From Phyllobates terribilis (taxonomy: Eukaryota), in assembly GCF_046119375.1 (NCBI RefSeq), contig NW_027365766.1, forward strand, positions 1-64,000: a stretch of 64,000 bases of DNA, in the 5' to 3' direction. The notes under the pieces were generated by a model that searched no databases, was not told where the DNA came from, and worked only from the letters and a program-made list of their open reading frames with translations. Both the position numbers and the translations under genes were made by a program. This document shows, piece by piece, positions 14,101-37,368 of the stretch (within the stretch, counting starts at the first letter, position 1; each line of letters begins with the position of its first letter).

Positions 14101-15115
14101 AGGTCAATTAAGAAAAGTGGAGAGTGAGTCTTCGACCTCGGATTCAGGTAATGAGAAAATGTGGAGGAAGCTTTGGGACCTATGTGTGCCGCCGAGGGTC
14201 AAATCTTTCCTTTGGAGGGCATGTAAGGAGATCCTTCCGATGAAAGCTAATCTGGAGCGGAGAAACATTACCCCAGATGCTAAATGTGAGTGGTGTGGTG
14301 GCGTGGAATCGACTATCCATGCAATTTTCAAGTGCCGGGAACAAACTGCATTATGGAAAGTATGCCCAAAGCTGAGCAAATGGGGAAGAAGGGGGGACTC
14401 AATGTGGGAAGTGGTTTGTAATGCACAACACTATCTGAGGGGCGAGGACTTTGAACTGTGGGTTCTGATCTGCTGGCGGGCTCGGAGGGCTCGAAATTAG
14501 AAACTATTTTAAGGGAAGGATTTGGAGGTATAGTGTTGTTCAAGAGTGTAACCAGATGCTGCAGAATTTTCAGAGAAGCAGGTTGCACGTTAACATGGGT
14601 GGAACAAAACCGGTGTGAATTGAAAAGTGGCAACTTCCAACTACTGGTTGGATAAAAGCGAATTGCGATGCTGTAGTTTCTAAGAAAGATGGGATGGATA
14701 TCGGATTTTGTCGCCAGAAATTCGACAGGGAGAGTGGTGTTTTTGGGGTCTAGACGGGCGACGTTTTTGAGGATCCAGAGATTGCTGAAGCTGAGGTGGT
14801 GCGATGGACCCTTCAATGCTGCATGGAACGAGGATTCCGGAAAATATGTATCGAATCGGATGCGTACGCTGTTATTAATAAGATTCGAAAGAAGAAAAGG
14901 TGGGGAGGCGCGCTGTGATGGAACTGCAGAAGATTGGGGTTATGGCTAGGAGCTGTGGCGAGTGCGCTTGGACGCATGTTCGTAGGGATGGTAATAGACC
15001 GGCACATTTCTTAGCTAGTTTGAAGCCGCCGACAATGATGTATTGTGATTTCGATCCTGGATTTTCACATGTTTTCAACGAACTCTGTAATTCTGATTGT
15101 GTTGGAATGTATTAG
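11149..15115 (+). pseudogene. LINE ORF2 (endonuclease, reverse transcriptase, zf-RVT, RNase H), multiple stops and frameshifts
   Basis: [64 protein letters not shown] and HVRRDGNRPAHFLA; starts in a TAATG overlap with the ORF1 stop. Confidence 0.88.
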
Positions 15116-17400: not shown

Positions 17401-18582
17401 GGGGAGAATGTATCATTGTCAATCGAATCAAATTTAATTATGGAATGAAATTTTGCCTAATCCATATGCAATGGAGGAGCCACATTGAGACGAGGAGGGG
17501 CCTAATCCCCTCTTGACCTCCAACGGAACGATTATATGTAGTAGTTATACTGCCTGATTATAGTCGTTATTGAAGGAAATTAAACTTGTTAAATATCGTT
17601 GAATATAGGGAAGATGACAAGGTGCTTGCTCAATTTTCTATTAAATGATCAAACGATTCGGCGGGTCTGTCACGTGACTGGTCATGTATAAATTTCATTT
17701 AAAAATTGTTGTAATTTATGTAAGCATGCATTTATTCTATTTATTCTAATTTTTGTAAGTATAAACTATATATTTAAATTTAGTTTGTGCCCTCCAAACA
17801 AACATCTCTAGCTTCGCAATTGGATTTTAAGTTGATGAGTTCACTTATTATTAGATTTGATATGTTAATTTAAATTAAATTTTGAATAAATTAGATTGAT
17901 GAATTTGTTTATGTTCTTGTGTGTTCGAGCTTTAGTTATGAGCTTTCAAACAATTTATTCTGTAACAAAAATTCGGTATGTCTAATAGTGTTATGCATAT
18001 TTTTGCTACAAAATTCTTTAGAAAAAAATCGCTCGATTTCGTTGGAAATAAATCTTGATTAGTCATTTGGCCTCCCGCGAAAGGTGATCCTGGCTAAGCC
18101 CCTATCGATATGGTCGACAACTCCATAAAATCGTTCTAGTATACAATTTGAGCTACCTCATGCTCAACCAATAGACTACTTTATTGATTTTATTCTCCCA
18201 CTTTATATATCATATGACCAAATAAAATTTATCTATGATATGTGAAAAATCATATACTGGTATATGATGGTGTTAAGTCCTCATTTGAATCCTTGAACCA
18301 CCCAAGGAATATGAAGACTCTAATTTACTCTTAAATAATTGACTATATTGATATTAAAAATTAAGTCCAATGTTTCGATCACCCCTACATGAGTTTAGTA
18401 TCCTTGAAACTTATGGTCATATTATATATGTCTAAATAAAAATTGATCTTGCATATCATCTTTTCACTTGGAAGATCGAACTAATTTACATTCACAAGTG
18501 ATTAATAACGTTCACCTAACTTTAAGTTAGAATATATAATTCAATGGGTTGCCATCGACAAATAGTGTTTAAAGTTCCTTAT

Positions 18583-19767
18583 TGTTAGTTGAGCTTTGGT
18601 AGGAATATTAAAGCTCAATGTATTTCTCTGTGTTTTGATGATAACAAACTAATATGTTTAATTTCTTAGTGTTTTTAAGCCTTCCAGGTCATTGCCATAT
18701 TTGTAAGGATGCGCTTAAGTCACTTAGAGATGCGCTTGACTGGTAACAGTCGCGCTTAACACCAAGCGGAGAAAGTTAGTTTCGCAAACGGTGTTTAAAT
18801 AAATCCATTCAAGACCAAGAAGTAAGAGTGATCGAGCTTCGAGGGCATAGGGATGCGCTTGAATGTAGTTGAAGAAAGTTGATCACGAAGTTCCACTGAA
18901 GCTTAGGGTGTGCCAGAGCACAGGAGAACAAATCTAGACGCTTCGAAGGCTGGTAAGGCGGGAGAGTGCAAGTTGCGTGCACAGGAAGGTGCGAGAAGAA
19001 CTTCACACTCTTTGGGACGCTACTCCAGGGATCGCCAGCGTGGCAAGAGTTTGTTAGAGCTAAAAGCACACGGATTGCTTATGTGGCGTGGATCAACACA
19101 TGGAGAACAAAACCAAATCACTCCAAGCCGTTGATTAATTCTGGTGAAGTGATCAAGGCACACGGATTGATGAGGTGGCATTTTATATAGTCTCAGTTTG
19201 TTACACGGTTAAGCTATAGGGTTAGCTTAGGACTTGTGTATAAATAGAGTACTATTTCATTCATTTCAAGGGTTGCAAACGTTGAGGATATAGGAAGCTA
19301 GAGAGAGCTTGAGATATAATTCGTTTGTAATCAGAGAGTGTTGAGAGTGCCTTTGTTCTCCAGAGCTGAATTGAGAGTATTGTAGAGAGAGTGCTTACGA
19401 GTGAGCTTCTCGTGTTGAAGCAAGAGATTGTAATCACTTCTTAATCAATACAAGTGTAGTGGTGAGTTTTATCCCGAGTCAGCTAGTGGCTTAGGGTTCT
19501 CACCTTTGGAAATTCTTGTGTGTGCAAATATAGGTGCGCTCTAACAACTTAAAGCGCGCTTTATTGTCGTCTGACCACTTCCGCACTTAAAGGACATTAG
19601 TAAATTCATTACTAAGTGTTCTACATTGGTCAAGCGCATCTCAAGTATCGAAAGCGCAATTCAATACTAGTGAAGCGCATCTAAGGCTTAATGAACCTTA
19701 GAGACAAAAGACAATAGCTGATCAAAAAACGTATTTTATACTTTGTTAACGTGTTTCAAAACCAACA
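18583..19767 (+). repeat. 5' LTR of SIRE element
   Basis: Starts tgttagttgagc, ends aaaccaaca; TATA (tataaatag) at about 19240; nearly identical to 28425-29609. Confidence 0.97.
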
Positions 19768-19769
19768 AT

Positions 19770-19781
19770 TGGTATCAGAGC
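19770..19781 (+). promoter_or_regulatory. Primer binding site, initiator tRNA-Met
   Basis: tggtatcagagc two bases after the LTR end. Confidence 0.95.
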
Positions 19782-19844
19782 TACAGGTTAGCTATTTGCA
19801 CTAATCCTTTTGCAGGTTCAAAAAGGGTTCTCAAGTCTAGAACG

Positions 19845-21812
19845 ATGGCCAGCTTCAACCTCGGTATTTCTCTCGCCAAGCCCCATGTCCTTGTCGAAGG
19901 CGAACTTGAATGGTGGCTCACTATGACGAGGAATTACATCCAGCAGACCGACTACCAGTGCTGGAAGATTATCGAAAAAGGTGATGAGAAAATTTCCGAA
20001 GCGGATGACTCGAAATGGGAAGCAAAAGAGTACCAGCTTATGGAGAAGAATGCTAAAGCGCGACAGCTCATTCTTAATGCCCTTTCACGAAAAGATATAG
20101 ACAAGGTAATGTCCCTTCCCACTGCTCAAGATATGTGGAAGGCTATCATAAACATGCACTCTGGCAGTGATGATATGAAGGACAACCGTATCTTTGAGCT
20201 TAATCGCGAGTTTTGTTCCATTCGAATGGGGGAAACTGAACTCGTCTCTGATTATCATTCCCGGTGCCAAATCTTGTATGACAAGATGCTTTCTGCTGGA
20301 ATGGAGAAGAAAGCTTGGGAGTATTCTATGGCGTTCATTCATGGAGTGAACTCAAAGTATACAACCCTCAAGCAAATCCTTCTTCAGTCCAAGGAAACTA
20401 GGAATTTGCCTATCTCTGTGCTTGCAGGTAAATTTAAAGTGCAGGAAATCAAGAACAACGAGGAAAAACAATCAGAACGAGAGAACAGAGGGATGGCGCT
20501 CAAGTTGTCTCGTGTTCTTCAAAAACTTGAAAATGATGAAGAAGGAGAAGACGACGATGATAGGGACGTTGCTATGATGACCAAAGTTGTGAAAAAGTTT
20601 TTCAACAAACAAAAGCGCGACTCTACATATAAGCAGCGCGACCTCAGGGACTTCACCTGTTTCAACTGCAATGAGAAAGGTCACCTCGCCAAAGCGTGCC
20701 CTCATCCTAAGGTGAATCCAGGATCCAGCTCAAAACAGCCCCCCAAGCAAGCCTTCGTCACTCTTTGGGGAGAATCTGATGATGATTCGGACGATGGAGC
20801 GCAACCTGATATGTGCTTAATGGCTGGCGCCGCATCTGACTCAGACTCTGGATCTGAGATTGAGGTAAATGACCTGAACCTTGACATTCTTCCCAAGCGC
20901 AATCTTGTCCATCTTCTAAAAGAGCTTATGGTTCAACATAAGTCTCTAGTAACTGATGCTAGAGCACGGCATGTTGAACTAGATAATGCTAAGGAAGAAC
21001 TGGTTGAGCTTTCTAAACATTTACATGACAAAAACACACTCCCTTCTAAATCTTGTGAACTTTGTCATGGTAAAGGGTTAGAAGGTAACTCTGTCTCAAC
21101 CAAAGACGTTAAGTTTGATCAGATCATATCAAAGCTTGATGTTCTTACAAAGTTAGTTGAAACAAAATCTGTTTCTCAAACAGGTTTCGTTAAAGCTAGA
21201 CCTGGATTGGGTTATGACCCCCAGGAATCTTCCTCCTCCTCCATTCCTCCTCAAGCAAGTGAAATATCTTCTAAGATCAAATCACTTGAACAAGACCTTA
21301 CTGCTTACAAGAGTGAAAACTCTCATTTAAAGAGCAGGATTAAGGTACTTGAGGAACAACCTTCAGAAACCAAAGAATGGTTTCGTGGGGGAAAAGCGCA
21401 TCATCTGTATAAGAAACAAGCGCTTACCCCAACTCAGCCTCCCGTCTTGCAGAAGAAACAACCATTTAGACCGGGAAAGGGAAAGTATGGTTATGTAAGA
21501 GGTAACCATTACTGTACCTTTTGTGGTCAAAATGGACATGACAAACGAGAGTGCAGAGACTTTAAGGTTCTTAAGAGTAAGCCTTATAAGCAAATGGCTA
21601 AAAATAAAGGCAAGCGCACACGTATTCAACAGTCCTCAGTTGAGCACGGATGCGCTTCAGGACACAGAGGTGCGCTTCGTCCAGAGCGACCTCACATTGT
21701 GTTAGATCTGAACGATCCTAGCTATTATAAGCCAGTCCAAAAGACTAGCTCAGAAATAGCTATGTCTAATGTTCCCACGGAGCGCAAGCTTCGATGGGAG
21801 ATCAAAGCTTGA
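19845..21812 (+). CDS. gag: SIRE Gag with long C-terminal extension (655 aa), two CCHC knuckles
   Basis: Open frame from ATG 19845. UBN2-type core (QTDYQCWKIIEKG, EKNAKARQLILNAL), knuckles CFNCNEKGHLAKAC and CTFCGQNGHDKREC. Confidence 0.92.
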   Translation: MASFNLGISLAKPHVLVEGELEWWLTMTRNYIQQTDYQCWKIIEKGDEKISEADDSKWEAKEYQLMEKNAKARQLILNALSRKDIDKVMSLPTAQDMWKAIINMHSGSDDMKDNRIFELNREFCSIRMGETELVSDYHSRCQILYDKMLSAGMEKKAWEYSMAFIHGVNSKYTTLKQILLQSKETRNLPISVLAGKFKVQEIKNNEEKQSERENRGMALKLSRVLQKLENDEEGEDDDDRDVAMMTKVVKKFFNKQKRDSTYKQRDLRDFTCFNCNEKGHLAKACPHPKVNPGSSSKQPPKQAFVTLWGESDDDSDDGAQPDMCLMAGAASDSDSGSEIEVNDLNLDILPKRNLVHLLKELMVQHKSLVTDARARHVELDNAKEELVELSKHLHDKNTLPSKSCELCHGKGLEGNSVSTKDVKFDQIISKLDVLTKLVETKSVSQTGFVKARPGLGYDPQESSSSSIPPQASEISSKIKSLEQDLTAYKSENSHLKSRIKVLEEQPSETKEWFRGGKAHHLYKKQALTPTQPPVLQKKQPFRPGKGKYGYVRGNHYCTFCGQNGHDKRECRDFKVLKSKPYKQMAKNKGKRTRIQQSSVEHGCASGHRGALRPERPHIVLDLNDPSYYKPVQKTSSEIAMSNVPTERKLRWEIKA

Positions 21813-21827
21813 TCTCTATTATTGCAG

Positions 21828-24800
21828 GTTGGGATGAAATGTAGGTGGTATATCGACAGCGGTTGCTCGTGCCATATGACGGGTGATCCACAGTTACTAC
21901 GTTCATTCCAAGCTAAGGAAGGAGGCAACGTCTCCTTCGGTGACAAAAAACAAGGTAAGATCATTGCTAAAGGACGAGCGCATCTCAACAACGCTATTCA
22001 GATAGGAGATGTAAACTTAGTAGAGAACCTCAGGTTCAATCTACTGAGTGTAGCACAACTATGCGACCAAGGAGGTAATAAGGTATGGTTTAGCACAACT
22101 GAGTGTGCAGTGGTCAACCCTGAACAAGAGGTGCTTCTCAAGGGCAAGCGCATAGATAACACCTACCTCTTCGACCACTCCTTCTCTCCTAAGCGCAACC
22201 TTTGTCTAGCTACACTCACTGAGACAACAAATCTTTGGCACAAGAGAATGGGACACGCAAGTCTACATCTACTCAACAAGCTTCAGTCCAAAGATCTTGT
22301 TCGTGGTCTTCCTCGCATCAAGGTAGAATCCATGACTTCATGCTCAGACTGCTCAAAGGCTAAAGCGACTCGTAGCTCCTTTCCCTCTATCAAGGTAGTG
22401 CAGACTAAAGCTCCCCTTGAGCTTCTCCACATGGACTTATGTGGACCACTACGAACGCAGAGTAAGGGAGGTAATCGCTATATTTTTGTAATAGTTGATG
22501 ACTATTCTCGCTATACCTGGACTCTTTTCTTGAAGCACAAGAGCGAAACCCTTGCAAAGTTTCAAGCTCTTGCGCTTTTACTGGAAAAGAAGCTAGGGCT
22601 CCCCATTTGTTCAATTCGTTCTGACAATGGAACTGAATTCAAAAATGGTGAGTTCCTATCATTTTGTGAGGATAGGGGTATTGATCATAATTTCTCCACC
22701 CCTAGAACCCCTGAGCAAAATGGTGTGGTTGAGCGCAAGAATAGGACACTTCAAGAGATGGCACGCACAATGCTACTCTCTAGTGGTGTCGCTTCACACT
22801 ATTGGGCTCAAGCTGTGAGCACTGCATGTTATATAACTAACCGTGCCTTCTTAAGGCCTATTCTTGAGAAAACTCCCTATGAACTGCTTAAAGGGCGTAC
22901 ACCAAATATCTCTCACCTAAGGGTGTTTGGTTGCAAGTGTTACGTCCATAACAATGGGAGAGATCTTTTGGGTAAATTTGATGCTAGGAATGACGAAGCT
23001 ATCTTCCTTGGATATGCACCTACAAGTCAAGGATATAGAGTACTCAATCTGAGAACTCAGATGGAAGAAGATAGCATCCACGTGAAATTCAATGAAGGAG
23101 AGCTTGAAAGTGTTCCAGAATTCAACGATGATCCATTCTCCAGTCATGATCCACTTCCAGCTTCTCTTTCCAATCCTCAAGCGCAACCTTCTGTCCCTTC
23201 TTCAGGTATGGAAAGTGACGACGATGATAGTGGAAGATGCGCTTCTCTGCCTTTGGTCACAGAAGCTTGCATTCCCAGAGAAGAAGCAACTCAAAAGAAC
23301 AACACTCAGAATGAAGATCATGAAAGTGGACCATCCATTAATGTTCTTGCTCCCTCTTCACCTCTTTCTCCAGGTCAGGTAACTCCCTCTGTTACTTCTT
23401 CTACCCCTTCTAGCTCTCAAGCGGGACCTAGTATTGGTGAAGCGCAACCTGGAAGTTCTCAAGCGAGTCCCAGTGGACTTTCTAGTGGTAGTGAAAGCCT
23501 GTCCAAAACTACAACGATGAAGCTACCAGACAACACAGAGGTCACCGTGCGCGATTATCAACAGTTGAACTCTCATCCAGTTTCTGCGATCATATCTCAG
23601 TATGAAAAAGGTACCCAGACTCGCTCTAACGTTCATAACATGCTTGCTTGTAGTGCTTTTGTTTCTTTACAGGAACCCAAGTCCATAAAAGTTGCGCTTC
23701 AAGATCCAGATTGGATAATAGCCATGCAAGAAGAGTTGGAGGAGTTCCAGCGCAACCAAGTTTGGCGTCTAGTACCCCGGCCAGGTGATAGAAGCATAAT
23801 TGGAACGCGCTGGGTATACAGAAACAAGCTGGATGATAGTGGAGCGGTGGTACGAAACAAAGCGCGTCTTGTTGCACAAGGTTACAATCAACAAGAGGGC
23901 ATTGACTACGATGAAACGTACGCACCAGTAGCTCGTCTAGAGGCAATTCGACTGTTGATAGCCTACGCAGCGCACAAAGGATTCAAGCTATTTCAAATGG
24001 ATGTGAAGACAGCCTTTCTCAATGGTAAGCTTAATGAGGAGGTCTATGTCAAGCAACCACCAGGATTTGAAGATCCAGCTTATCCAGACCACGTGTACTT
24101 TCTTGACAAAGCGCTATATGGCCTAAAACAAGCCCCTCGCGCTTGGTATGACTGTCTATCTAAGTACTTGTTGGCAAATGACTACAAGAGAGGTTTGGTG
24201 GACAAAACCCTCTTCATAAGGGAAGTGAAAGGTGATATTCTCATTGTTCAAATTTATGTTGATGATATTATATTTGGTTCTACTAACTTGCAGCTAGTAG
24301 AAGACTTTAAGAACACCATGAGCCTCAAGTTCAGCATGAGCATGATTGGTGAGCTTAAGTACTTTCTAGGGCTTCAAGTCAACCAAATGGATGAAGGCAT
24401 TGAGATTCACCAGCAGAAATACATCAAAGAGTTGCTTAAGAAGTATCAAATGGAAAACTCTAAACCTTGCCCTACTCCTCTCTCCACTACTACAAAACTG
24501 GACACAGATCTTATGGCTGAGAAGATAGATGAAACCTTGTATCGAGGTATGATAGGTTCTCTAATGTATTTGACTGCTTCACGTCCCGATATTGTTTTTG
24601 CTGTTAGTGTATGCGCTCGATCCCAGTCAGACCCTCGCGCTTCTCACCTTGCTCATGTAAAGCGCATCTTCAGGTATTTAAAAGGGTCTGACGATCTTTG
24701 CCTTTGGTACTCCAAAGGGGGCGGTCTTTCTCTTGTTGGCTATACCGATGCAGATTATGCAGGTTATTTGGCTGATAGAAAGAGCACTAGTGGCATGGCA

Positions 24801-25199
24801 CAGTTCCTTGGTCCCTGCTTAGTCTCCTGGGGATCCAAGAAACAAAATTGCATAGCGCTCTCAACGACTGAGGCTGAATACATAGCGGCAGCGCAATGTT
24901 GCGCACAAGTTTTGTGGATAAAGCAACAGCTCGTTGACTATGGTATTACTCTTGACACTATATCTATATTTTGTGATAATACTAGCGCTATATGTGTTTC
25001 GAAGAATCCTGTCCATCATACAAGAACGAAGCACATCGACGTAAGACATCATTTTCTGAGAGACCATGTGGAGCGCAAGAATATTGAGCTTATTCACGTA
25101 TCTTCAGAAGGGCAATTGGCCGATATCTTCACTAAGGCGCTTAATCGTCAGGTATTCTTAAACCTCAGGGTTCAGCTTGGTCTCATTCAGCTCCATTAG
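21828..25199 (+). CDS. pol: SIRE Pol (protease, integrase, RT, RNase H), uninterrupted
   Basis: [91 protein letters not shown]. Confidence 0.97.
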
Positions 25200-25909
25200 C
25201 TTCGAGGCAATCGCCCTGTAAGTATTCCTCTATTTGACTAGAACTAGCGAGCTTAGTATCAAGGTACGAACTATGGTCGCTTGCGCTTGATAGCTTTGCG
25301 TCTGCATGCTTTTGATTGATTCTTGAAATGAATAAGTATTGAACTAGTCTGACTTGTTTGGCTCGATTTGATATAATCATAATCCATGCATGCTCTCATT
25401 TGCCAAAACTTGACAATGGTGATCGTCTTCTACCCATATTATATGCCTCAGAAATGATCCATTGCATTGGTGTCCCTAGCCTGACTAGATGTAACGCTTC
25501 TCTCGTCCTTATTGAGCTCTACATAAGAGAAGTATTCATTTAGTGACATAAAGCCTCAATTACCATACTACATGTATATGCACATACGTCCACATCAACT
25601 TGAGTGATTGAATGCTCTAATGTCCCCTATATGAAATGTGCATCTTCCATTCATTAATTGCTTTACATTGTGGTTTGAAAAAATTGAACTGGACATCACA
25701 CTCTCATGACTACTCATCTCATTCAGTGTTTTGCTTCTTCAGTTCTTGCTATCAGTGATGTTTAGGCATGCGCTTCAGTGTTCAGCGCATTTGGGACAGT
25801 CAGTACATTGCGCTTTGTAGCGCATCAGGGTGGTTTCCTTCGTGGTTGGGTTTGCTTAACAATTAAGCAAGGCTTTTCTCGTAATTAAAGCGCGCCGCTC
25901 GTGTGTGAT

Positions 25910-26053
25910 GTAACGGCTATTTACAGTGCAACGGTCGAAAATCTAGCCGTTAGTGATCTACGCCGCGTTTTTATTGGACCATTGGTGGTAACGGCTCTAT
26001 TTTGTGATTGGTTCGTTGAAGCGGTTCCGAGTTGATGTAAAGAGCTATAAATA
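25910..26053 (+). promoter_or_regulatory. Putative internal promoter for the env-like ORF (4 AACGG cores, 3 reverse CCAAT, TATAAATA)
   Basis: AACGG at 25912, 25930 and 25990, CCGTT at 25947; ATTGG near 25973, 25981 and 26008; TATAAATA at 26046-26053, followed by a CT-rich leader and accATGg at 26154. Confidence 0.55.
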
Positions 26054-26153
26054 CGAGGTATTTGCCCTACAATTCTACCTTCCCATCGTTACTCCTTTAC
26101 ACTTACTCTCCTCTTCTACTCTCCCTTCTCCAATTTTCTTTCTACTTGCTACC

Positions 26154-27884
26154 ATGGACAAAATCCTGAGCGCCCTCACCGAGCTTGACCCAGAAACTCG
26201 TGCGAAGTTTCAATCACTTGTCCAAGCTACATCTTCTTCACCGCCTCCATCCAAGCAGGTGTCCCATGAGGTAACATCTCCCACTAAAACGGCCTCCCCT
26301 AAACAACCACCTCCTACAACCACCCCTGTTCCTAAATCTCCAAAAGGTCCATCTTCTCATATTGACCTTACTACTGAACCCTCTCCCTCCTCAAAAAGCC
26401 TTTCCAAAACACCTTCTAAGCCTAAATTCGCCCATATGCCTCCAGTTGATTTGGACTTGTTGGCCCAAGACCTAGAGCTCGCTGGCTACGATCCAGTTCA
26501 AGAGCTTGGCCGCATTCAGGCAGAGACCTCACACACAACCCCAGCTAAAGGTAAAGGGGTTCTTTCAGTTGATACACCCTCTCGCCCGGGGTCAAAAACA
26601 AGATCTCCAGGGCATGCGCTTCTCTCTCCACAAGACGAGCACTTCCAGTTCCTAGCGTCAATTCCTTCAGATTCAGACGCAGATGAGGATATCCAGCCTC
26701 TGCCCAGTTCAAGCGCACCAACTCCTCTGCCGCTTCCATCCCAGAAGCCTGATAGGCTGAGTGACGCGCTTCGCCGCAAAGGTAAAAAGCGCAAGGCTGC
26801 TGCTCCTCCTCCTCCAATCTCTGAGCACGAGTCGTCTGATGGCTCGGAACATGACTCCCCACCGCCTACTACTAAGCCAGTCGGCACTTCTACTCGTTCA
26901 AAGCGCACCAAGGTATCAACTTTATCTGACTTCCCTTCTGTCCCTCAAGGTGTACAGAAACGCTCCCTCCTCTTCCCAGAAATCGTCACTCAGGATCTAC
27001 TCACGGGTCTCCAAGACTCGTCCCACGTTGCCCGCTTTGCCACTTGGCTAAGCTTTCAGGGCTGGGACACGCTGGAAACTGAACCAGCGCGCTGCAACAA
27101 CTCCATGGTATACCAATTTTATGCAGCGTTGGAGTATCCACCACCGAATCCAGAGTATAGCTCAGTCACGTTTACCTGGAGAGGAAATACAAAGGAAAGT
27201 TTCAGGGTAAAGGATTTGGCTAAAGCGATTGGGCTAACGGAGCAATCCAGTGGTTTTGGCAGGCTATACAAGAAGAATTGGCCGGCAGGGGCGTCTGCAC
27301 TGAAGAAGGTAGTGTTTGGTCAGAATGTTCCAAAAGGTACGCTTTCAGTTGACCTTCTTCGACCCTCTAAGCGCCTTCTTCATCATTTCATCATCACCAA
27401 TATCACGCCAAGGGACTATGACCGTGATAAGGTGACCATAGCTGACTGCTGCATCATGGCTGCCGTAATCTCCAATCAGGTAGTCAATACAGCTCAGCTC
27501 ATGATGAGCCACCTGGTGCTATGCCGCGCTGCAACTTCAGGCCCTCTACCATTCCCTCACCTAATCTGCAAGATGCTCCGCACAGATGGATTGTATGATA
27601 ACTCTCTTCCTGATTATGCTTGCTCTACTTTCCTTACAACTGACGCTATTGTTGCACTCCTTCTACCCAAGAATGAGGAAAAACTTCCCTCCAGCTCGCG
27701 CTCTGAGTTGAGTCCTCGAGCTCGGGTCTCCTCCAGTTCCAGTGACATATCTGCTATAGTCGCTTCTATGGAAGCGCATCAGGAACGGGTAGAGAAGCGT
27801 CTTGAAGAAATGGTAGAGATAATGTCGTCAATACTAAAGCTTGTTCAGGAGAAGTTCAGTGAAGAGCGGGGTGGTAGCCCTTGA
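26154..27884 (+). CDS. SIRE env-like/accessory ORF (576 aa): Pro/Ser-rich N-terminus, basic NLS-like patch, C-terminal region resembling the putative plant transposon protein domain, terminal coiled coil
   Basis: Open frame from ATG 26154; RRKGKKRK; VYQFYAALEY...LLHHFIITNITPR...VNTAQLMMSHL...LPFPHLICKML; domain assignment is from motif memory, not a search. Confidence 0.8.
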   Translation: MDKILSALTELDPETRAKFQSLVQATSSSPPPSKQVSHEVTSPTKTASPKQPPPTTTPVPKSPKGPSSHIDLTTEPSPSSKSLSKTPSKPKFAHMPPVDLDLLAQDLELAGYDPVQELGRIQAETSHTTPAKGKGVLSVDTPSRPGSKTRSPGHALLSPQDEHFQFLASIPSDSDADEDIQPLPSSSAPTPLPLPSQKPDRLSDALRRKGKKRKAAAPPPPISEHESSDGSEHDSPPPTTKPVGTSTRSKRTKVSTLSDFPSVPQGVQKRSLLFPEIVTQDLLTGLQDSSHVARFATWLSFQGWDTLETEPARCNNSMVYQFYAALEYPPPNPEYSSVTFTWRGNTKESFRVKDLAKAIGLTEQSSGFGRLYKKNWPAGASALKKVVFGQNVPKGTLSVDLLRPSKRLLHHFIITNITPRDYDRDKVTIADCCIMAAVISNQVVNTAQLMMSHLVLCRAATSGPLPFPHLICKMLRTDGLYDNSLPDYACSTFLTTDAIVALLLPKNEEKLPSSSRSELSPRARVSSSSSDISAIVASMEAHQERVEKRLEEMVEIMSSILKLVQEKFSEERGGSP

Positions 27885-28184
27885 GCAGTTGTGATGGTTG
27901 CGCTTTTTAAAGCGCATTTGCTGATTCTCTTTTTTTTTCTCTCTGCTATGTTTTTGTGATTTATTGAATTAGCTCGCTAGGACTCCACCTTCTTTTGTGC
28001 AGTTTGTACTTGAAATAACAATATAGTATGCTTCTGATTTTTATATCTCTGAGAGCCTTACTAACTTGACTTGTCTTTACTTGAGTTGCTCACTTTTCTT
28101 TCTTAAGATTTGTTGACGTCTTAGCTAGCAAGCGCACTCTACTATCTTTCTTACCGTATGACTTTGCTTTGAATTTTTCGATGA

Positions 28185-28424
28185 TGTCAAAAGGGGGAAA
28201 AACACAGGTAAATTTCTCTTTGATTAAGGGGGAAGTATGAGATCGTGCTTGAATTCAGGGGGAATTGAAAACTGGTATGGTTAAGTACCTTGGTAAGTTA
28301 CTTTGATCCAATTCTGAATCTGAATACTTGATTAAATTGATATTATTGATTTCATTTTGGTCACTTAAGAAAGTATTCATGAGCTTACCTGTTTACAGTT
28401 TGTCATCATCAAAAAGGGGGAAAT
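28185..28424 (+). promoter_or_regulatory. Multiple polypurine tracts (Sirevirus signature)
   Basis: aaagggggaaaaa, aagggggaag, agggggaa and aaaaagggggaaat directly before the 3' LTR. Confidence 0.9.
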
Positions 28425-29609
28425 TGTTAGTTGAGCTTTGGTAGGAATATTAAAGCTCAATGTATTTCTCTGTGTTTTGATGATAACAAACTAATATGTT
28501 TAATTTCTTAGTGTTTTTAAGCCTTCCAGGTCATTGCCATATTTGTAAGGATGCGCTTAAGTCACTTAGAGATGCGCTTGACTGGTAACAGTCGCGCTTA
28601 ACACCAAGCGGAGAAAGTTAGTTTCGCAAACGGTGTTTAAATAAATCCATTCAAGACCAAGAAGTAAGAGTGATCGAGCTTCGAGGGCATAGGGATGCGC
28701 TTGAATGTAGTTGAAGAAAGTTGATCACGAAGTTCCACTGAAGCTTAGGGTGTGCCAGAGCACAGGAGAACAAATCTAGACGCTTCGAAGGCTGGTAAGG
28801 CGGGAGAGTGCAAGTTGCGTGCACAGGAAGGTGCGAGAAGAACTTCACACTCTTTGGGACGCTACTCCAGGGATCGCCAGCGTGGCAAGAGTTTGTTAGA
28901 GCTAAAAGCACACGGATTGCTTATGTGGCGTGGGTCAACACATGGAGAACAAAACCAAATCACTCCAAGCCGTTGATTAATTCTGGTGAAGTGATCAAGG
29001 CACACGGATTGATGAGGTGGCATTTTATATAGTCTCAGTTTGTTACACGGTTAAGCTATAGGGTTAGCTTAGGACTTGTGTATAAATAGAGTACTATTTC
29101 ATTCATTTTAAGAGTCGCAAACGTTGAGGATATAGGAAGCTAGAGAGAGCTTGAGATATAATTCGTTTGTAATCAGAGAGTGTTGAGAGTGCCTTTGTTC
29201 TCCAGAGCTGAATTGAGAGTATTGTAGAGAGAGTGCTTACGAGTGAGCTTCTCGTGTTGAAGCAAGAGATTGTAATCACTTCTTAATCAATACAAGTGTA
29301 GTGGTGAGTTTTATCCCGAGTCAGCTAGTGGCTTAGGGTTCTCACCTTTGGAAATTCTTGTGTGTGCAAATATAGGTGCGCTCTAACAACTTAAAGCGCG
29401 CTTTATTGTCGTCTGACCACTTCCGCACTTAAAGGACATTAGTAAATTCATTACTAAGTGTTCTACATTGGTCAAGCGCATCTCAAGTATCGAAAGCGCA
29501 ATTCAATACTAGTGAAGCGCATCTAAGGCTTAATGAACCTTAGAGACAAAAGACAATAGCTGATCAAAACACGTATTTTATACTTTGTTAACGTGTTTCA
29601 AAACCAACA
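28425..29609 (+). repeat. 3' LTR of SIRE element
   Basis: Same length and sequence as the 5' LTR at offset 9842. Confidence 0.97.
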
Positions 29610-31210
29610 GATATCATAGTTGGTTCTGCAGATACGGGTAACTCCATTTTCTTCACAAAAGGCATTACTTAAGCAACGTTCAAAAGTAATGAACTTTACA
29701 AAAATATGTATGACCCTCACATACAATTACAACACATGACAATAATATCAACACATGTATAATCGTTGGAAAATTGAATATCGTAATCTTCAGAGAATCA
29801 AAAAAATTTAAAGTCATCGACGATGTCCACATATGTAGCCACATTGTTGAGGATATTTATAGAGACGACGTTCAAGAATGTTCCGCTATTTTGGACAAGG
29901 ATCACATGCATTTGGGAAATAGAATCAATATCGCTTCTAAGCATTTCATCGAACACCTTGTGTGTGATATTTAACTCATACACCATAAACACATACTATC
30001 AAAATCAATTCTGAAATTGAACCTCATAATTGTGTCACTATCAAATCAATTGTGGTAGTCTTATCAACACTCTCATTAGCATCAAATTGACATATTAGTT
30101 TTAGAAATCGTGTAATGTCCATAAGTCGTGGAACAATGTTCATAATTTGCATGCTAGTGTTCATAAACTGAAATTGGTTGTTCATAAACTTATACAAATA
30201 CATGAATAAGACAACAGAAAAACAATGTTCATCAAAAGACAAAGACATAAATATTCACAAAACAGTACCAACAAATCCGAAGCAGCTAAATACAACTTCG
30301 TCCAATGTCTATTGAGGAAAACAACAATAACAATGAATTCAAGGAAAAAACATCAATTCAACTAAAAACGCAACAACCAAGCAAATTTTGGTTAGAATAC
30401 ATACTTGGATCCATGAGATTGATGAAGCACAAGTAAACTCCAATTTTTTCAAGGCACTGATGATTAAGAAATTGAAACGAAAATTGAAAATTTGGCCAAG
30501 AGATCTATTTCAAGAGTAGAAAAACGAAATTGAAGATAGAAGTGACATGGCTTCAATGGAGGAGAAAAATGGTGGATCATTAAAATGAAATTAGGTTTTT
30601 GGAGGAAGATCTAATTTTCAGCTAAAAGTACAATTATGTCCTTAGGTAGGTGGATTCATTAAAACAAGGAGTGTGCATCTGAACCATTGATCAAGTTTGA
30701 TCCAATGGATGAGACATATTTGCATATTTTAGGATAAAAATGTTTCTCAATTGATATTCTCTCAACACTAGTACCCCTTCTACCATTGCAGGTGGTCCCA
30801 TCCACCTTTATTGTAAACTATGTTGGAAGATGTTGCCGAGGAGGGTCGATTCATGGACCGAGCGGTACATGGGCAACTTTTGTACCACTCGGGTACCACT
30901 CAATATTTACAACTACATTGCTCATGATTTGCTTTGCATATAGAAAAATTGAAAATCGTAAAAAAAATTCAAAAAAATGTTATCCCATAATAATTGAAAC
31001 CAAAATTTATAAAAACTAGAAAATAAGAAATATTGTCTTAATGACTAATGATTAAAAATTTACAAAGGTTGAGGATCATATTGAAATATTTTAAAGATTA
31101 TGGACTATTATTAAACATTGAGAAAAAGGTTTTGGATTAGGATAGAGTGTTTTAAAGGTTAAGGACTATAACCGAACATTGAGAAAAAGGTTAGGGATTA
31201 AAATCTAGAG
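29610..31210. mobile_element. Degenerate Mutator-like remnants
   Basis: TIR-like stretch near 30600-30765 and subterminal aaaggtt/ggact repeats at 31060-31210; no paired ends found. Confidence 0.3.
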
Positions 31211-31616: not shown

Positions 31617-34600
31617 TGTTAGAATCCATAGAGGAGGAGAATGATTGAGTAGAGAAGATGATTCATTGAAATCTTAGAATGAGATTACACGGGTTTATAT
31701 AGAAGTGGAGACATCTATTAGTTGAGCTTTGATAGTCAAATATGAAAGCTCGATGTATTTCTCTTTGTTTTGATGATAACAAACTTATCTATCTAATCTC
31801 TTTGTGTTCTAAGCTACCCAGGTAATCATAAGACTTGTTGGGTTGCGCTTTCATCACTAAGAGATCGCGCTTCGACTGTTCCAGTCACGCTTAACACCAA
31901 GCGGAGAATCTAGTTTCGCAAGCGGTGTTTGAATAACTCCAATCAAGTCCAGAAGCAAGAGGAATCGAGCTTCTCAAGCCAAGAGGGCGCTTGAATAAAG
32001 CAGAGTTGTATTGTTGATCAACGAGAGTCCACAGAAGCAAGGGTGCACGCACTTGCAGAATAGAGCTTCCAAGATGCTTGTAAAGGTTGGTGAGCGGGAA
32101 ATCGAAAACTGAGTGCACGTGGGGTGCAAGAAGGGTTTTGGGATTTCTTGAAGCAACTCCAAGGACTGCCAGCGTGGAAGGAAGACGGTTAGCTCGTGAA
32201 GGCACGGATTGCATACGTGGCAAAGATCAACAATAGAAGAACAAAACCAAATCAATTCCGTTCATTTGATTATTTCTAACAACTTGGTTAAGCACACAGA
32301 TTGATGAGGTGGCAAGCTAGCTTAGTTTCTGATTTGTTATCACAAGTTAAGTGTGTTGTATCTTAGCTTTGATGTATAAATAGGGAACTGTAGCTATCAC
32401 TCTAGTGTGACGAGTATTGACGAGCTTATTGTAATCAGAGTGAATTGCCTTGTTCTTAGAGCTAGAACGTAGTGTATTGTAAGAAGTGAGAGTACGAGAG
32501 TGAGCTTCTTAAGAGTGCAGAAGGTTGACATGTGCTCTTGTTGAAGCTAAGGTTGTAATCTCTTTCTTTCAATATAGTAGAGTGAGTTTTATCCCGAGCC
32601 AAGTAGTGGCTTAGGGTTATCACTGTTTAAGAACTCTTCCGTGCAAGTTGTAGTGCACTTTAATAGCTTAAAGTGCGCTTTATTGTTGTCTGACCCGTTT
32701 CCGTATAAGAGGACATTAGTAAATTCATTACTAAGTGTTCTAATTAGGTCAAGCGCAATTCTAAGTACAAAAACGCATCTTGTACTTATAATTGTGCATC
32801 TGTAGCTTCATGAACTATAGAGACATCGATCAATAACTGCTAAAACATGATCCTACAACATCTGTCCACGTCTATTATCAACAGATTTAATAGTGAATGT
32901 AATTATGTTGTAACATAATGAGGAAAAGTGAATGCTAACACCCCCTCAAGTTGGAGGTTGGTGATCTAAGACAAGACCCAACTTGGGTAAGACATTCATG
33001 TTCATAGGGCCAGATAAAGGTTTTCTATATATGTCAGCAAGCTGGCAAGTCGTAGGTATGTGAGTCAAAGAAATGAGGCCTTCAACAAGTTTGCTGCGAA
33101 CGAAGTGACAATCCAGTTATATGTGTTTCATCCGTTCATGATAAACAGGATTCTTCACAACTTACATAGCCGCTTGGCTATCACAATGAACTGGAATGGG
33201 TATAATATCATGAATTCCCAGTTCATGAAGAAGTCGACTTAGCCAAGTTAATTCTGTAGTGACTCTCCGAATGGCTCGATATTCAACTTAGGCGGATGAT
33301 AAACTGATGGGAACTTGTTTCTTGCTTTTCCATGATAAAGGAGCACCACCAAGAGTGATATGAAAACCACTAACATATCGCCTAGTGGATGGACAGGAAG
33401 CCCAATACGAGTCACAAAAAGCCTGAAGCTAGAAATCAGTTGAATTATTCAGTAAGAGTCCCAAGGAAGATGTATGATGAACATACTGTAGAGTGCAAAG
33501 AGCAGCATTCCAATGAGTGATCGTGGGAGAGTGCATGAATTGACATAAATGTTGCACAGTGAAGGCTAGATCAGGGCGGTTGTTGATCAAGAAATTCAGT
33601 TTGCCCACAAGATTTCTATATGTAGTTGGATCAGTTAATAGAGAACTATAATCAGGATGTAGTTTATTGCTAGGTTCCAAGGGGCTTTTCACACAAGCGA
33701 GTGAAGGTTTGAAGTCTGCAACAAGTTCCTTGATGAATTTTTGTTGAGTCATGAGAATGCCATCAGAAGTATGTAAAAATTCGATCCCCAATAAGTAGTT
33801 CAAAGAACCCAAATCCTTGATGCTGGTATGGAGAAACTTGAGAGATTGAATTGCATCAGTATCATCATCAGTGCTCAAAATGTCATCAACATAAATCACC
33901 AAGTACACAACACTAGTAGAAGAATGCTTGTGAAAGAGAGAATAATCATTAAGAGATTGTAGAAAGCCTTGAGAAATTAGTACCTCAGAAAGTTTGTTGT
34001 ACCATTGTTTAGAGGACTGCTTAAGTCCATACAAAAATTTAGAAAGTTTGCAAACCTTCTTTGGATACAAATGAGAGAGGCCAAGAGGGATCTTCATGTA
34101 CACCTCTACATTAATATCTCCATGAAGAAAAACATTATTAATATCTAGCTGGATGAGAGACCATCCTTTCTTTATGGCTGAAATGATCAAGGCCCTGATG
34201 GTTGTCATCTTCACAACTGGTGAAAAATTCTCAGTGTAATCCATCCCTGCTTTCTATGTGCAGCCTTTGATGACCAACCTAGCTTTATGTCTCTCAAGAG
34301 TACCATCAGCCTTAAGTTTCAATTTGTATACCCATTTGGAGCTAATGGGTCTTTTACCCTTAGGAAGATCAACTATCTCCCAAGTTTTATTAGCATCCAA
34401 AGCCTCTAGTTCAAGCTTCATAGCTTGAATCCATTATGGGGATTTAACAACATCCTCATAACAATATGGTTATGTCAAGGATTGAAGTGTAGTAAGGCTG
34501 GACTGGCTGTGAGTATTGAGGGCATGAAATGATATGGAAGTCGATGGAAATTTAGTGAAGTCAGAACAGACATTGTTACAATAGTAATCCTGAAGGTAGG

Positions 34601-37368
34601 AAGGAGGACGTGTGTTTCGGATTGGCCTAGAATTGGGAGGCTTATTTAGTGGAGCTGAAGGAGAAGGAACATGTAAGGGTGAAGGATGTGATGGAGAGTT
34701 ATTATGTGGTGATGGAGGTAAAGAGGATGGTTTAGAGTCATAATGGTCCGTGTCAATGAAAGGAGGTGGATTTGGTGAAAGGGAAATGGGCAAGGTACTG
34801 TGAAACGGATATATTTGCTCATGGAAAGAAACATCCATGGATACGAATATAGAGTGATCATGAGAAGAGTGTAACCCTTAATGCCAAAGGGATAACCAAG
34901 AAAAACAACTTTGATAGCACGAGGCATGAGTTTCTGGTGACCAACAGTGGATGATGAAGCATACACAAGGCAGTCGAAATTCCTCAAATGAGAGTATGTA
35001 GGTTGTTTCAGAAAGACCCTCTCATATGGAGACAAATTGCCCAAGACTCTAGTAGGAAAACGATTGATGAGATATGTGGTGTTAGCAAGCAATGACCCCA
35101 GTACCTCAAAGGTAATTGTGACTGAAATAACAAGGCCCATGCAATTTTAAGAAGATTCCTTTGTTTTCTTTCAACCATGCCGTTTTGCTGAGGAGTATGG
35201 ACACAACCGAGCTGGTGTATAATCCCTTTAGTAGAGAAATAAGACCGGCCTGAGTGACTAAGACCAAGTTCCAAAGCACTATATGATCTCACAATCTTCA
35301 CAGATGTGTTAAACTGAGTTTCAACAAGAGATATAAAGATTTGAAGAAGAGAAAGAGCATTACTCTTAGACTTCATTAGATGAGTACAAGTAAGACGACT
35401 ATAATCATCAACAATGGGAATGAAATATTTTGTGTCCATCACGAGTCAATGTATTATAAGGCCCCCAAGTATCTACATGAAGTAATTCAAAGCAACATGT
35501 AGATAGAACTAGAAGGAAAAGAGCTTATATGGTGTTGAGCCTTAGCATAAATTTCACATGCTGAGCAAGAATGATTATTAACATCACATTTTAGTAAGGA
35601 ACTCAATTTATACAATGGTAAATGACCTAATTTGTATGCCAAAGAGACACATCAATAGGATTAGTAGATGATTGTGAAGTGTAGGATGAATGTAGCTCAT
35701 GATCATCCAAGTTAACATTATTCTTTGAGGCAATATACTACCTGTTTTGCACCTTACCAAGCACCAGAGGCTTTCTCAGAGAAGGGCTTTGCAACCAGCA
35801 TAATTCAGTAGAGAAACAAGCAGTACAGTGTAACTGGCTAGCAAGCTTGTGTACTGAGATTAAATTGAACTTAAATGCAGGAACATATAAGACATTAGCA
35901 AGGAAAACATCCTTTGATAGACAAACACTTCCAAAGTGAGTCACATTCATAGTATGTCCATTAGGCATGGACACCGTAACTGAATTAGGCAACTTCTTCA
36001 TGTCAATAAAAAGATCCAGATTAAAGGACATGTGATCACTTGCGCCAGAATCAATAATCCAAGCAGAAGATGATTTAGAAGAGCCTAAATTATTTAGAGA
36101 AGTAAACGAGCAGGAAATACCAGCAAAGTGGGCATTAGAAGTGTTGGATTCTTGACTATTCTTGGATAGTAACTGAAGTAGCTGAGAGTATTGATCATAT
36201 GTCAAGCCTTGGATAGAATCAACAACAGAATGAGCAGTAGAGGTTGATTATTCGGATAGCCTATGATCTTGAAGCACTTGTCAATAGAATGACCGAGATT
36301 CTTGCAATTAGTGCAGTATGGACGTTTTCCTTTAGAAGGAGCAGGAGGCAAGACAATAGGAGTAGAAGCATTTAGAGAAGAAGAATAAAGACTTAGAGTA
36401 GGAGTAGAATGAACCTCTCTTTGGCTTTCTTCATGAAGCAGAAGCGAATAAGCTTGATCCACAGAAGGAGCTGGCTTCATCATTAGAATGCTTCCTCGAA
36501 TATTGGCAAACGATTCATTCAATCCCATGAGGAATTGAAGAAGTCGACGATCCTCATCATGAGCAAGTAAATCATCAGCAAGGCCACATGTACAAGCTGG
36601 AAAATTACGCATAGAGTCTTGTTCATCCCATAAGCGCTTGATATGTGTGAAGTAATCAGAAACATCTTTTCAAGGGAATATCTCTGTGCGTTGTTGACAT
36701 GAGAGAAGCGAGCGTTGACATCAAGCCAAATCTTGCGCGCATCTCCACACATGAGGAAAGTATCTGCAATTAGCTTTGCCATGGATGTAAGAAGCCATGA
36801 GACAATCATATGACTGCACCTCTGCCATCGACAGAAAGAAGGATGAGTTGGTGCAGGCTTCTGGATCTCTCCATCGATAAATCCAAGCTTATTCTTGGCA
36901 GATAAGGAGAGAATAACCAAGTGTTTCCAACTGAAGAATCCATGGTCGTCGAACTTGTGAGATCCGATCTCGGTTTTGGGAGAATGGGAAGGATGAGGAT
37001 AGAAAGCATCATTAGGATCTGGAGGAGTGTTCCATGGATTCGTAGGATTGAGTGGAGGAAAATCTCAATCACGATTGTGATTCGCAGGATTGCGATTTGG
37101 AGGATTGTGATTTGGAGATACCATTGATGGATGAATGAAGCGGAAGGAAGGTGAATCAGAAGGATCGATTACTCATCTGATACCATGTTAGAATCCATAG
37201 AGGAAGAGAATGAATTAGTAGAGAAGATGATTCATTGAAATCTTAGAATGAGATTACATGGGTTTATATAGAAATGGAGACATTTGTCCACGTCTATTAT
37301 CAACAGAAATAGCAGAATAACATAATGCAATTCTATTGTAACATAATGAGGAAAAGTGAATGCTAAAA
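31617..37368 (-). mobile_element. Degenerate short-LTR Copia element (Ale/Retrofit-like); 5' LTR 37186-37368, 3' LTR 31617-32940 (interrupted)
   Basis: LTRs of about 180 bp, PBS tggtatcaga on minus at about 37176-37185, PPT ccccctcaag at 32941-32950, TSD cagtc/caatc. Fragmented gag (SAKNKLGFIDG), PR (WIIDSGASDHM), INT (QQNGMVERK) and RT (QLDINNVFLHG, IYVDDIL). Confidence 0.92.
31716..32857 (+). mobile_element. SIRE solo LTR (1142 bp), related to but diverged from the 18.6-29.6 kb element, nested in the Copia 3' LTR
   Basis: Collinear with the SIRE LTR (tattagttgagcttt..., gagttttatcccgag, gacattagtaaattcattactaagtg); perfect 5-bp TSD acatc on both sides. Confidence 0.93.

Follow-up and report, generated by a model that had tools for sequence, protein, structure and literature searches.

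The window described here is a 64,000-nt stretch of DNA (contig NW_027365766.1, positions 1 to 64,000), in which a Ty1/copia long terminal repeat (LTR) retrotransposon with the marks of a Sirevirus (SIRE lineage) carries an env-like open reading frame (ORF) between pol and its 3' LTR. A first-pass annotation of the same sequence had proposed that this ORF is an independent, possibly mitosis-timed gene for a nuclear protein rather than an envelope gene, and that its product serves chromatin access, integration targeting or anti-silencing, possibly in partnership with a dispersed AGCGC motif. What the env-like gene of Sireviruses does has been under question since 1998. Its function is treated as unproven or controversial in parts of the literature (PMC3414828, PMC2829016, PMC7264820). 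In this study, we report a computational analysis of the gene, its upstream region, the predicted fold of its product and the distribution of the motif. The results point to a gene with a promoter of its own, whose product is predicted to share the fold of the transposon-encoded VANC factors and may act through AGCGC. The features concerned are as follows.

25912..25994: four cores (Y-AACGG-YY) resembling the mitosis-specific activator (MSA) element, at 25912, 25930, 25947 (minus strand) and 25990
25973..26011, minus strand: three CCAAT boxes (ATTGG at 25973, 25981 and 26007), outside the conserved module
26046..26053, plus strand: TATA box TATAAATA of the predicted internal promoter
26061..26153, plus strand: predicted 5' leader, C/T-rich and AG-free, with the start site predicted at about 26070-26085
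26154..27884, plus strand: env-like ORF, 576 aa, with a disordered Pro/Ser/Thr N-half, a basic patch, a VANC-like domain and a helical C-tail
26772..26795, plus strand: RRKGKKRK, aa 207-214, predicted nuclear localisation signal
26946..27683, plus strand: globular domain, aa 265-510, containing PF20167, with a predicted VANC21-like fold
27750..27857, plus strand: amphipathic helix near the C-terminus, judged by eye a possible coiled coil
18583..29609: 80 dispersed sites of (A)AGCGC(A), putative targets of the env-like protein

The env-like gene and its putative internal promoter

The ORF is a Sirevirus env-like gene and a member of PF20167. Its ATG, in the context GCTACCATGG, lies 954 nt past the pol stop, and the two ORFs are in the same frame but separated by 20 in-frame stops, counted across the pol stop and the linker. 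Readthrough from pol is excluded because of these stops, and leaky scanning is implausible since the linker holds 20 ATGs. No AG was found between 26058 and the ATG, positions further upstream being left open for a splice acceptor; thus neither stop readthrough nor an acceptor just before the ATG, the two routes of retroviral-type expression, was seen. The ORF is separate from pol, as the first-pass annotation had it.

The protein features described earlier were recovered. The basic patch RRKGKKRK occupies aa 207-214, and a basic patch upstream of the domain was present in five of the six homologues tested; Pro, Ser and Thr make up 41% of aa 1-264. The resemblance to a putative plant transposon protein domain was borne out by a Pfam search, which placed PF20167 (Transposase_32) at aa 302-479 (E 4.7e-12; 46.6 bits against a curated cut-off of 45) and matched 42 of the 43 members of the domain alignment. 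By hydropathy, the absence of a signal peptide and of a membrane segment also held: the maximum 19-residue value was 1.43, within the folded domain, the N-terminus was not hydrophobic, and the highest values in six homologues were 0.99-1.56. The signal peptide and transmembrane anchor of a retroviral-type envelope were therefore not seen in the hydropathy scan, and the structural model is soluble. Homodimer prediction for aa 265-576 gave a score of 0.02, and a word-based homologue search with the domain passed none of 1886 candidates.

Upstream of the ORF, the four AACGG cores fall within 83 nt, more densely than in any other 100-nt stretch of the 64-kb window. Four cores per 100 nt were reached in none of 5000 dinucleotide shuffles of the linker and in 3 of 5000 shuffles of 25880-26060, so the clustering noted earlier is real. 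MSA promoters have been described with 2-6 AACGG cores in either orientation near a TATA box (PMC10905365), and the MSA consensus has been given as (T/C)C(T/C)AACGG(T/C)(T/C)A (PMC5405339). The region before the env-like ORF resembles such promoters controlled by MYB3R at G2/M in having several cores close to a TATA box and a predicted start, with Y...YY flanks: Y-AACGG-YY is found at four of the four cores, full YCYAACGGYY at none of them, and the full 11-mer is unmatched in the window. It differs in that the cluster lies inside a retrotransposon, with an activity predicted from sequence.

Recurrence of this arrangement was surveyed in 40 of 150 PF20167 matches (the top 30 and 10 of other match lengths) together with the window, grouped into 11 env families by clustering at 65% domain identity. 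All DNA comparisons in this study were drawn from one plant genome, found as short contigs in the same assembly as the window. In five of the 11 families, a member has a TATA-like box with three or more AACGG cores lying 20-200 nt above it. Among the 573 remaining TATA boxes of these loci and the window, taken as controls, 2 had such cores. The comparison slightly favours the test set, for which the best box per 800 nt, two looser spellings and the best member per family were used. The flanks Y-AACGG-YY surrounded 18 of 22 module cores and 34 of 203 cores elsewhere (p 9e-10). Core orientation varied from family to family, which fits factor binding sites. In the env tree, the AACGG and TATA module was confined to a single large branch and was absent from a distant group of ten rows; of the check proposed earlier, conservation upstream of env-like ORFs in other Sireviruses, this covers families of one genome, the module recurring in five and being absent from six.

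The LTR promoter lacks such a cluster, with only one AACGG within 200 nt of the 5' LTR TATA. A similar AACGG cluster, in which the full consensus is matched twice, accompanies a cyclin gene on a short contig; among 12 cyclin loci used as a control, nine of them on non-plant chromosomes, a cluster of at least three cores was found in one. The three reverse CCAAT boxes annotated earlier are present, and three were reached in 6 of 5000 local shuffles; however, diverged families lack them at this position and the middle box is intact in just 3 of 29 close copies, for which reasons CCAAT was rejected as a component of the module.

Palindromic CGG-CCG RM boxes have been reported as clusters in the LTR and before env in 13 elements, not in all (PMC2829016). 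The AACGG cores were considered as such RM palindromes (of Bousios) and rejected: they include one inverted pair only, are non-palindromic and are nearly one-stranded in other families. An internal env promoter was supported but not identified by those authors, and the string 'AACGG' does not occur in the main text of their paper (PMC2829016). At window positions 26054-26061, and in most module-bearing families, (A)GGTA(T) stands close behind the TATA box. A metagenome scan returned one locus among 398 pattern matches, starting downstream of the promoter.

Judged from these features, the env-like ORF is very probably transcribed from an internal start site of its own, and we hold with high confidence that the gene has a separate promoter. 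Control by MYB3R at G2/M is moderately probable, the argument resting on core number, flanks and TATA proximity.

Predicted fold, gene history and the AGCGC motif

The structure of aa 265-510 was predicted, one of the checks proposed earlier, with AlphaFold2 (pLDDT 93.3, pTM 0.91) from an alignment of 43 sequences. In a Foldseek search of 350,542 PDB chains, the sole match at E<=0.001 was the VANC21-DNA complex 9lnj (E 2.1e-4, prob 1.0, TM 0.46). Comparison with VIA over 48,161 representatives ranked another VANC21 crystal, 9lnk, first with Z 8.6, an rmsd (root-mean-square deviation) of 4.3 and 195 aligned residues, the runner-up reaching Z 3.2; against 9lnj itself Z was 8.9. A model of the domain of L086 (a locus in our numbering, 20% identical to the window domain; pLDDT 89.7) again had VANC21 first by VIA, at Z 8.0, rmsd 4.3 and 203 aligned residues, with the next at 3.6. 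Across models the likeness to VANC21 is thus of moderate strength (Z 8.0-8.9, rmsd 4.3, 192-203 aligned); the match extends over the greater part of the domain and is well separated from the rows ranked below it, yet it is distant. Conserved basic columns of the domain are R270, K373, K374, R407, R420 and K473. No match to PF10536 was listed for the alignment members, a PDB sequence search with the domain gave one match at E 1.5, and a viral structure library gave none at E<=0.001.

VANC and host MAIN have been reported to share a fold (PMC13547354; bioRxiv 10.1101/2024.09.27.615353), and Gypsy elements to encode PMDs (PMC5418596). Given this structural homology and the existence of retrotransposon-encoded PMDs, the env-like domain likely belongs, on the evidence of its model, to the PMD/VANC fold family, and there are good grounds to regard the protein as a predicted nuclear DNA binder of that fold.

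The window was compared pairwise with 29 copies (30 loci of 40 matches listed, the window's own excluded) for the nonsynonymous-to-synonymous substitution ratio (dN/dS); pooled values were 0.03 for the domain (aa 265-510), 0.19 for the N-half, 0.24 for the tail and 0.07 for the end of pol, in pairs that share ancestry and are not 29 independent tests. By these ratios the env-like domain is under purifying selection. In L011-L030, synonymous divergence (dS) of the domain was about 0.5 and that of pol mostly 0.03-0.1, with identity falling near the start of env; the history of the gene is therefore partly separate from that of pol, and the pattern suggests that subfamilies have exchanged the env cassette. 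In L011, L014 and L016, identity is 96-100% over pol and the linker, then 80-92% from about the start of env.

L103-L106, which have no pol, keep gag and env, as do L107 and L109, in which a short pol remnant is left; by their gene content these six loci are non-autonomous SIRE-like elements with gag and an env-like gene. The AACGG and TATA module is retained in most of them. A single contig from run X1 links 25655 to 28035, removing promoter and env together, which is a weak sign of env-less derivatives.

The AGCGC motif named in the first-pass annotation proved real. The 80 sites occur at 5.6-8.4 per kb in every part of the element and at 0.35-0.38 per kb outside it, an enrichment of 20 times over background, and the usual form is AAGCGCA. 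As controls, 13 sites were counted in 33,492 nt of plant gene loci (six short-contig loci, 0.39 per kb) and none in four plant exons. In gag, 13 sites were seen against 2.9 in synonymous shuffles; in pol, where AGCGC is the top 5-mer, 26 were seen and about 6 (5.9-6.1) expected from such shuffles. Comparison of env with the diverged env of L117 showed that fourfold sites were unchanged at 11 of 11 motif positions and at 95 of 216 elsewhere (p 1.2e-4), non-motif CG sites being unchanged in 5 of 21.

Same-orientation AGCGC pairs at 20-21 bp numbered 7 against 0.5 expected (p 5e-5), a spacing that was spotted first and then tested. A tandem-repeat origin of the pairs was rejected because the spacers are unrelated, and the element contains no tandem array. 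Two helical turns would be the distance required by a protein contacting a pair of sites on one face. In related lineages AGCGA(C/G) is enriched in place of AGCGC, and the same spacing was found there in 17 of 83 pairs, control words having it in 3 of 74 (p 0.003); 1-4 of the 26 AGCGC sites of the window pol survive in these lineages. The three AGCGC-type env domains share a long branch (0.74). Binding of AGCGC by the env-like protein is, on this pattern of sites, slightly favoured.

Other CG-containing words (CTCGAC, CCCGCC, CGCCTA and CGTCGC) are strongly enriched at the loci L062, L064, L072 and L074, within the elements or in neighbouring sequence. A young, non-SIRE, env-less copia family with a single 1372-aa ORF (L153, L155, L158-L163 and L166) also carries AGCGC, with pairs at 19-22 bp; its relative L165 does not.

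Proposed mode of action and alternatives

Of the three roles put forward by the first-pass annotation, anti-silencing in partnership with AGCGC gained most support, from motif enrichment, silent-site retention and pairing. The proposed chain would run as follows. MYB3R would bind the AACGG cluster in dividing cells, and a short transcript would be driven from the internal TATA box; the protein, predicted to be imported to the nucleus via its basic patch, would bind paired AGCGC sites along the element through its VANC-like domain and, by the VANC precedent, would act in trans to counter silencing at cognate copies. Elements that lack env but contain this word would also be kept from silencing, and the env-less copia family is possibly a free-rider on the SIRE factor. 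We consider the evidence for and against this whole chain, from internal promoter and MYB3R to VANC-like anti-silencing through AGCGC, to be about equally weighted, and by analogy with VANC the balance is just as even for anti-silencing as the outcome of the env-like protein.

The analogy rests on several likenesses to the VANC factors (VANC21, PDB 9LNJ/9LNK, and VANC6), namely the predicted fold, the position as a separate accessory gene of a transposon, a short motif accumulated in the cognate family and differing between families, and the presence of that motif in an unrelated element. VANC proteins are reported to bind family-specific motifs, and unrelated AT9TSD1 elements to carry VANC6 motifs (PMC5735166). 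Unlike VANC genes, the gene studied here is carried by a Ty1/copia LTR retrotransposon and not by a VANDAL (Mutator-like) DNA transposon, has no sequence-level match to the VANC family, is preceded by an MSA-like cluster, and is associated with a shorter (5-7 nt), CG-containing motif paired at 20-21 bp. It is thus not a VANC gene in the strict sense, because carrier, sequence family and motif layout differ, and its product may work like VANC.

Several points weigh against the proposed chain. The fold match is moderate, with 7-10% identity, TM under 0.5 and Z 8-9, in a range where, as VIA warns, unrelated best matches reach Z 7-8; for the L086 model, Foldseek ranked VANC21 first without significance (E 0.12, prob 0.80), and 18 of the 22 rows of the L086 alignment were common to the first, limiting its independence. 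At E<=5, none of the 43 alignment members matched the VANC (DUF1985) or PMD Pfam families, among 13 families matched. Host MAIN and MAIL1, of the same fold, are reported to act in silencing (PMC5418596), and fold likeness by itself shows no function. AGCGC is dispersed and often coding, whereas VANC motifs are non-coding tandem repeats. Private C>T changes had affected 4 of 30 CG sites in the motif and 12 of 89 other CG sites, an equal frequency in a comparison of low power, and therefore no lasting protection is visible in the copies. The unrelated env-less copia family, with a reverse transcriptase at 42% to that of the window, carries 2.7-4.8 AGCGC sites per kb, spaced in the same way. Among env-bearing loci, no AGCG-type 5-mer tops pol in L110, L112-L115 and L121, the last having weak AGCG 6-mers. 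To these are added the absence of the promoter module from six of the 11 families, and the shared ancestry of the compared copy pairs and families, which are hence not independent.

The best-surviving alternative, which we regard as unlikely, is a VANC-fold binder of the motif without anti-silencing, which would coat cDNA or integrated DNA for nuclear entry, chromatin access or mitotic integration, or serve as a plain activator. It draws on the same fold and motif evidence; the motif is spread evenly over the whole element, as a coating signal would be, and its CGs are unprotected from C>T change. The nuclear envelope breaks down at G2/M, the time to which MSA control would point. However, anti-silencing is the role of the nearest relative with a solved structure, the motif holds a CG and shifts between lineages like VANC motifs, and retention of the gene in the pol-less relatives is in keeping with trans action on integrated copies.

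Somewhat less probable still is that a host factor binds AGCGC and is exploited by several young families, the env-like protein having other targets. The same word and spacing in the env-less copia family are explained equally well in this way, the lack of a clear motif in pol at several env-bearing loci speaks for it, and there is a precedent in the host PMD proteins, which are reported to work with promoter motifs (bioRxiv 10.1101/2024.09.27.615353). Against it, AGCGC is at background level in plant gene loci, and the switch from AGCGA to AGCGC coincides with the long env branch, a shift not to be expected from a host factor that stays fixed; for the carriage of another element's motif, AT9TSD1 offers a precedent.

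It is improbable that the AACGG cluster is read by other MYBs or by repressive MYB3R/DREAM, with expression not timed to mitosis. MYB factors in general use AACGG as a core, some MYB3Rs are repressive, and no core in the cluster has the full YCYAACGGYY; but the flanks fit the MSA consensus far above background, and core number, variable orientation and TATA proximity match MSA promoters. That the product is an envelope or a movement protein working at the membrane is highly improbable. Its place after pol and before the 3' LTR could suggest this, as could the transmembrane and coiled-coil parts described for some Sirevirus env-like genes (PMC3414828), but hydropathy is low here and in six homologues, the window protein has no signal-like N-terminus, the model is soluble and globular, and the only significant match is a nuclear DNA-binding protein.

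The earlier view of an independent gene that is not an envelope is supported indirectly, by purifying selection, the lack of a membrane segment, the VANC-like fold and the recurrent TATA and AACGG module. Returning to anti-silencing, sunflower SIRE elements have been reported to show a strong drop of CG methylation over their middle (PMC12844716), with which it is indirectly compatible.

Comparison with described systems indicated both agreement and difference. The position after pol and the presence of CG-containing, family-specific motifs agree with Sirevirus env-like genes and RM boxes as reported (PMC2829016, PMC3414828), whereas here non-palindromic MSA-like cores, not CGG-CCG palindromes, precede a conserved TATA box, the family motif also covers gag and pol, and the protein is without a membrane segment. 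A scan for CGG-N5-20-CCG (spacers 5-20 only) found three sites in total and none in an LTR, and AGCGC may be the equivalent of the RM boxes in this family. VANC is a reported structural homologue of the PMD proteins (PMC13547354), which include host MAIN/MAIL1/MAIL2 and Gypsy PMD-A; unlike the carriers named in the available text of PMC5418596 and bioRxiv 10.1101/2024.09.27.615353 (Gypsy, MULEs (Mutator-like elements) and host genes), the carrier here is copia, a word that occurs in neither. The sense additional ORF (aORF) of Athila, as in sunflower Athila 14, likewise has PF20167 in the env position, with a structure predicted in that report (PMC11728184); Athila 14 differs in being of Gypsy lineage, with no VANC link or cis motif given in the available part of the report. 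By analogy, we infer that the present result extends to the Athila PF20167 family.

More broadly, and tentatively, the PF20167 env-like genes of Sireviruses, and by extension those of Athila, could be VANC-type sequence-specific anti-silencing factors that are expressed in dividing cells via a captured MYB3R promoter, coevolve with a CG word placed at two-helical-turn spacing in the coding sequence of the element itself, and are swapped between subfamilies as a cassette, env-less retrotransposons exploiting them by copying the word. Our literature search, in which subscription journals and supplements were poorly covered, gave no paper that connects VANC/PMD with Sirevirus env-like or PF20167 proteins, nor one that connects an env promoter with MSA sites. 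A VANC-like fold and a candidate binding word make the question of function directly testable by binding. If true, sequence-specific anti-silencing would move from a DNA transposon family to among the most abundant plant LTR lineages, the family-specific CG motifs of Sireviruses would be offered a role, and retrotransposon activity would be linked to cell division. As tools for work on the epigenome, a family of natural factors of this sequence-specific kind, whose target words can be read, would be of interest too.

The carrier element and the source of the DNA

The remaining features of the carrier are listed below.

18583..29609: Ty1/copia element with Sirevirus (SIRE lineage) marks
18583..19767, plus strand: 5' LTR, 1185 nt, with TATA at 19239 and 10 AGCGC sites
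19770..19781, plus strand: primer-binding site TGGTATCAGAGC
19845..21812, plus strand: gag, 655 aa, with Retrotran_gag_2 and zf-CCHC domains
21834..25199, plus strand: pol, 1121 aa, with protease, integrase and RVT_2 domains; stop codon 25197-25199
28189..28421, plus strand: three polypurine tracts, starting at 28189, 28226 and 28411
28425..29609, plus strand: 3' LTR, with 5 differences from the 5' LTR over 1185 nt

The primer-binding site is presumably of the initiator-Met type, and the element is young. The last polypurine tract sits within an inverted repeat of 17 nt, whose arms are 28398-28414 and 28475-28491. Assignment to the Sireviruses follows from the copia order of pol with RVT_2, the multiple polypurine tracts, the inverted repeat around the terminal one, the additional sense ORF that follows pol and precedes the 3' LTR, and a TATA box in the middle of the LTR. 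Multiple polypurine tracts and an inverted repeat at their junction with the LTR have been described as Sirevirus features (PMC2829016).

Gag and pol share one frame and are separated by a single TGA. In the gap between them (window 21810-21834), a pyrimidine tract ends in TGCAG|GT, which we take to resemble a splice acceptor ahead of the pol ATG. The flanks CTTAT (18578-18582) and GATAT (29610-29614) form no clean target-site duplication despite the near-identical LTRs, possibly reflecting a recombinant element or an assembly join.

Every retrotransposon match fell on short contigs of the assembly (C2800-C9000 of genome G000 in our numbering), as opposed to the chromosome-scale contigs C1-C13, on which the cyclin boxes are, we presume, of vertebrate type. 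A TIC236 exon in the window (55056-55721, minus strand) has its nearest named proteins in Saponaria (75%) and Beta (73%). By these matches the window is plant DNA inside an apparently animal assembly, probably through plant contamination of the latter.

Elsewhere in the window, an ORF at 5369-6520 (minus strand) is presumably MscS-like, a pair of perfect 225-nt inverted repeats lies at 8463-9240, a LINE-like set of ORFs at 10145-14500, and a second, decayed copia element at 31617-37283.

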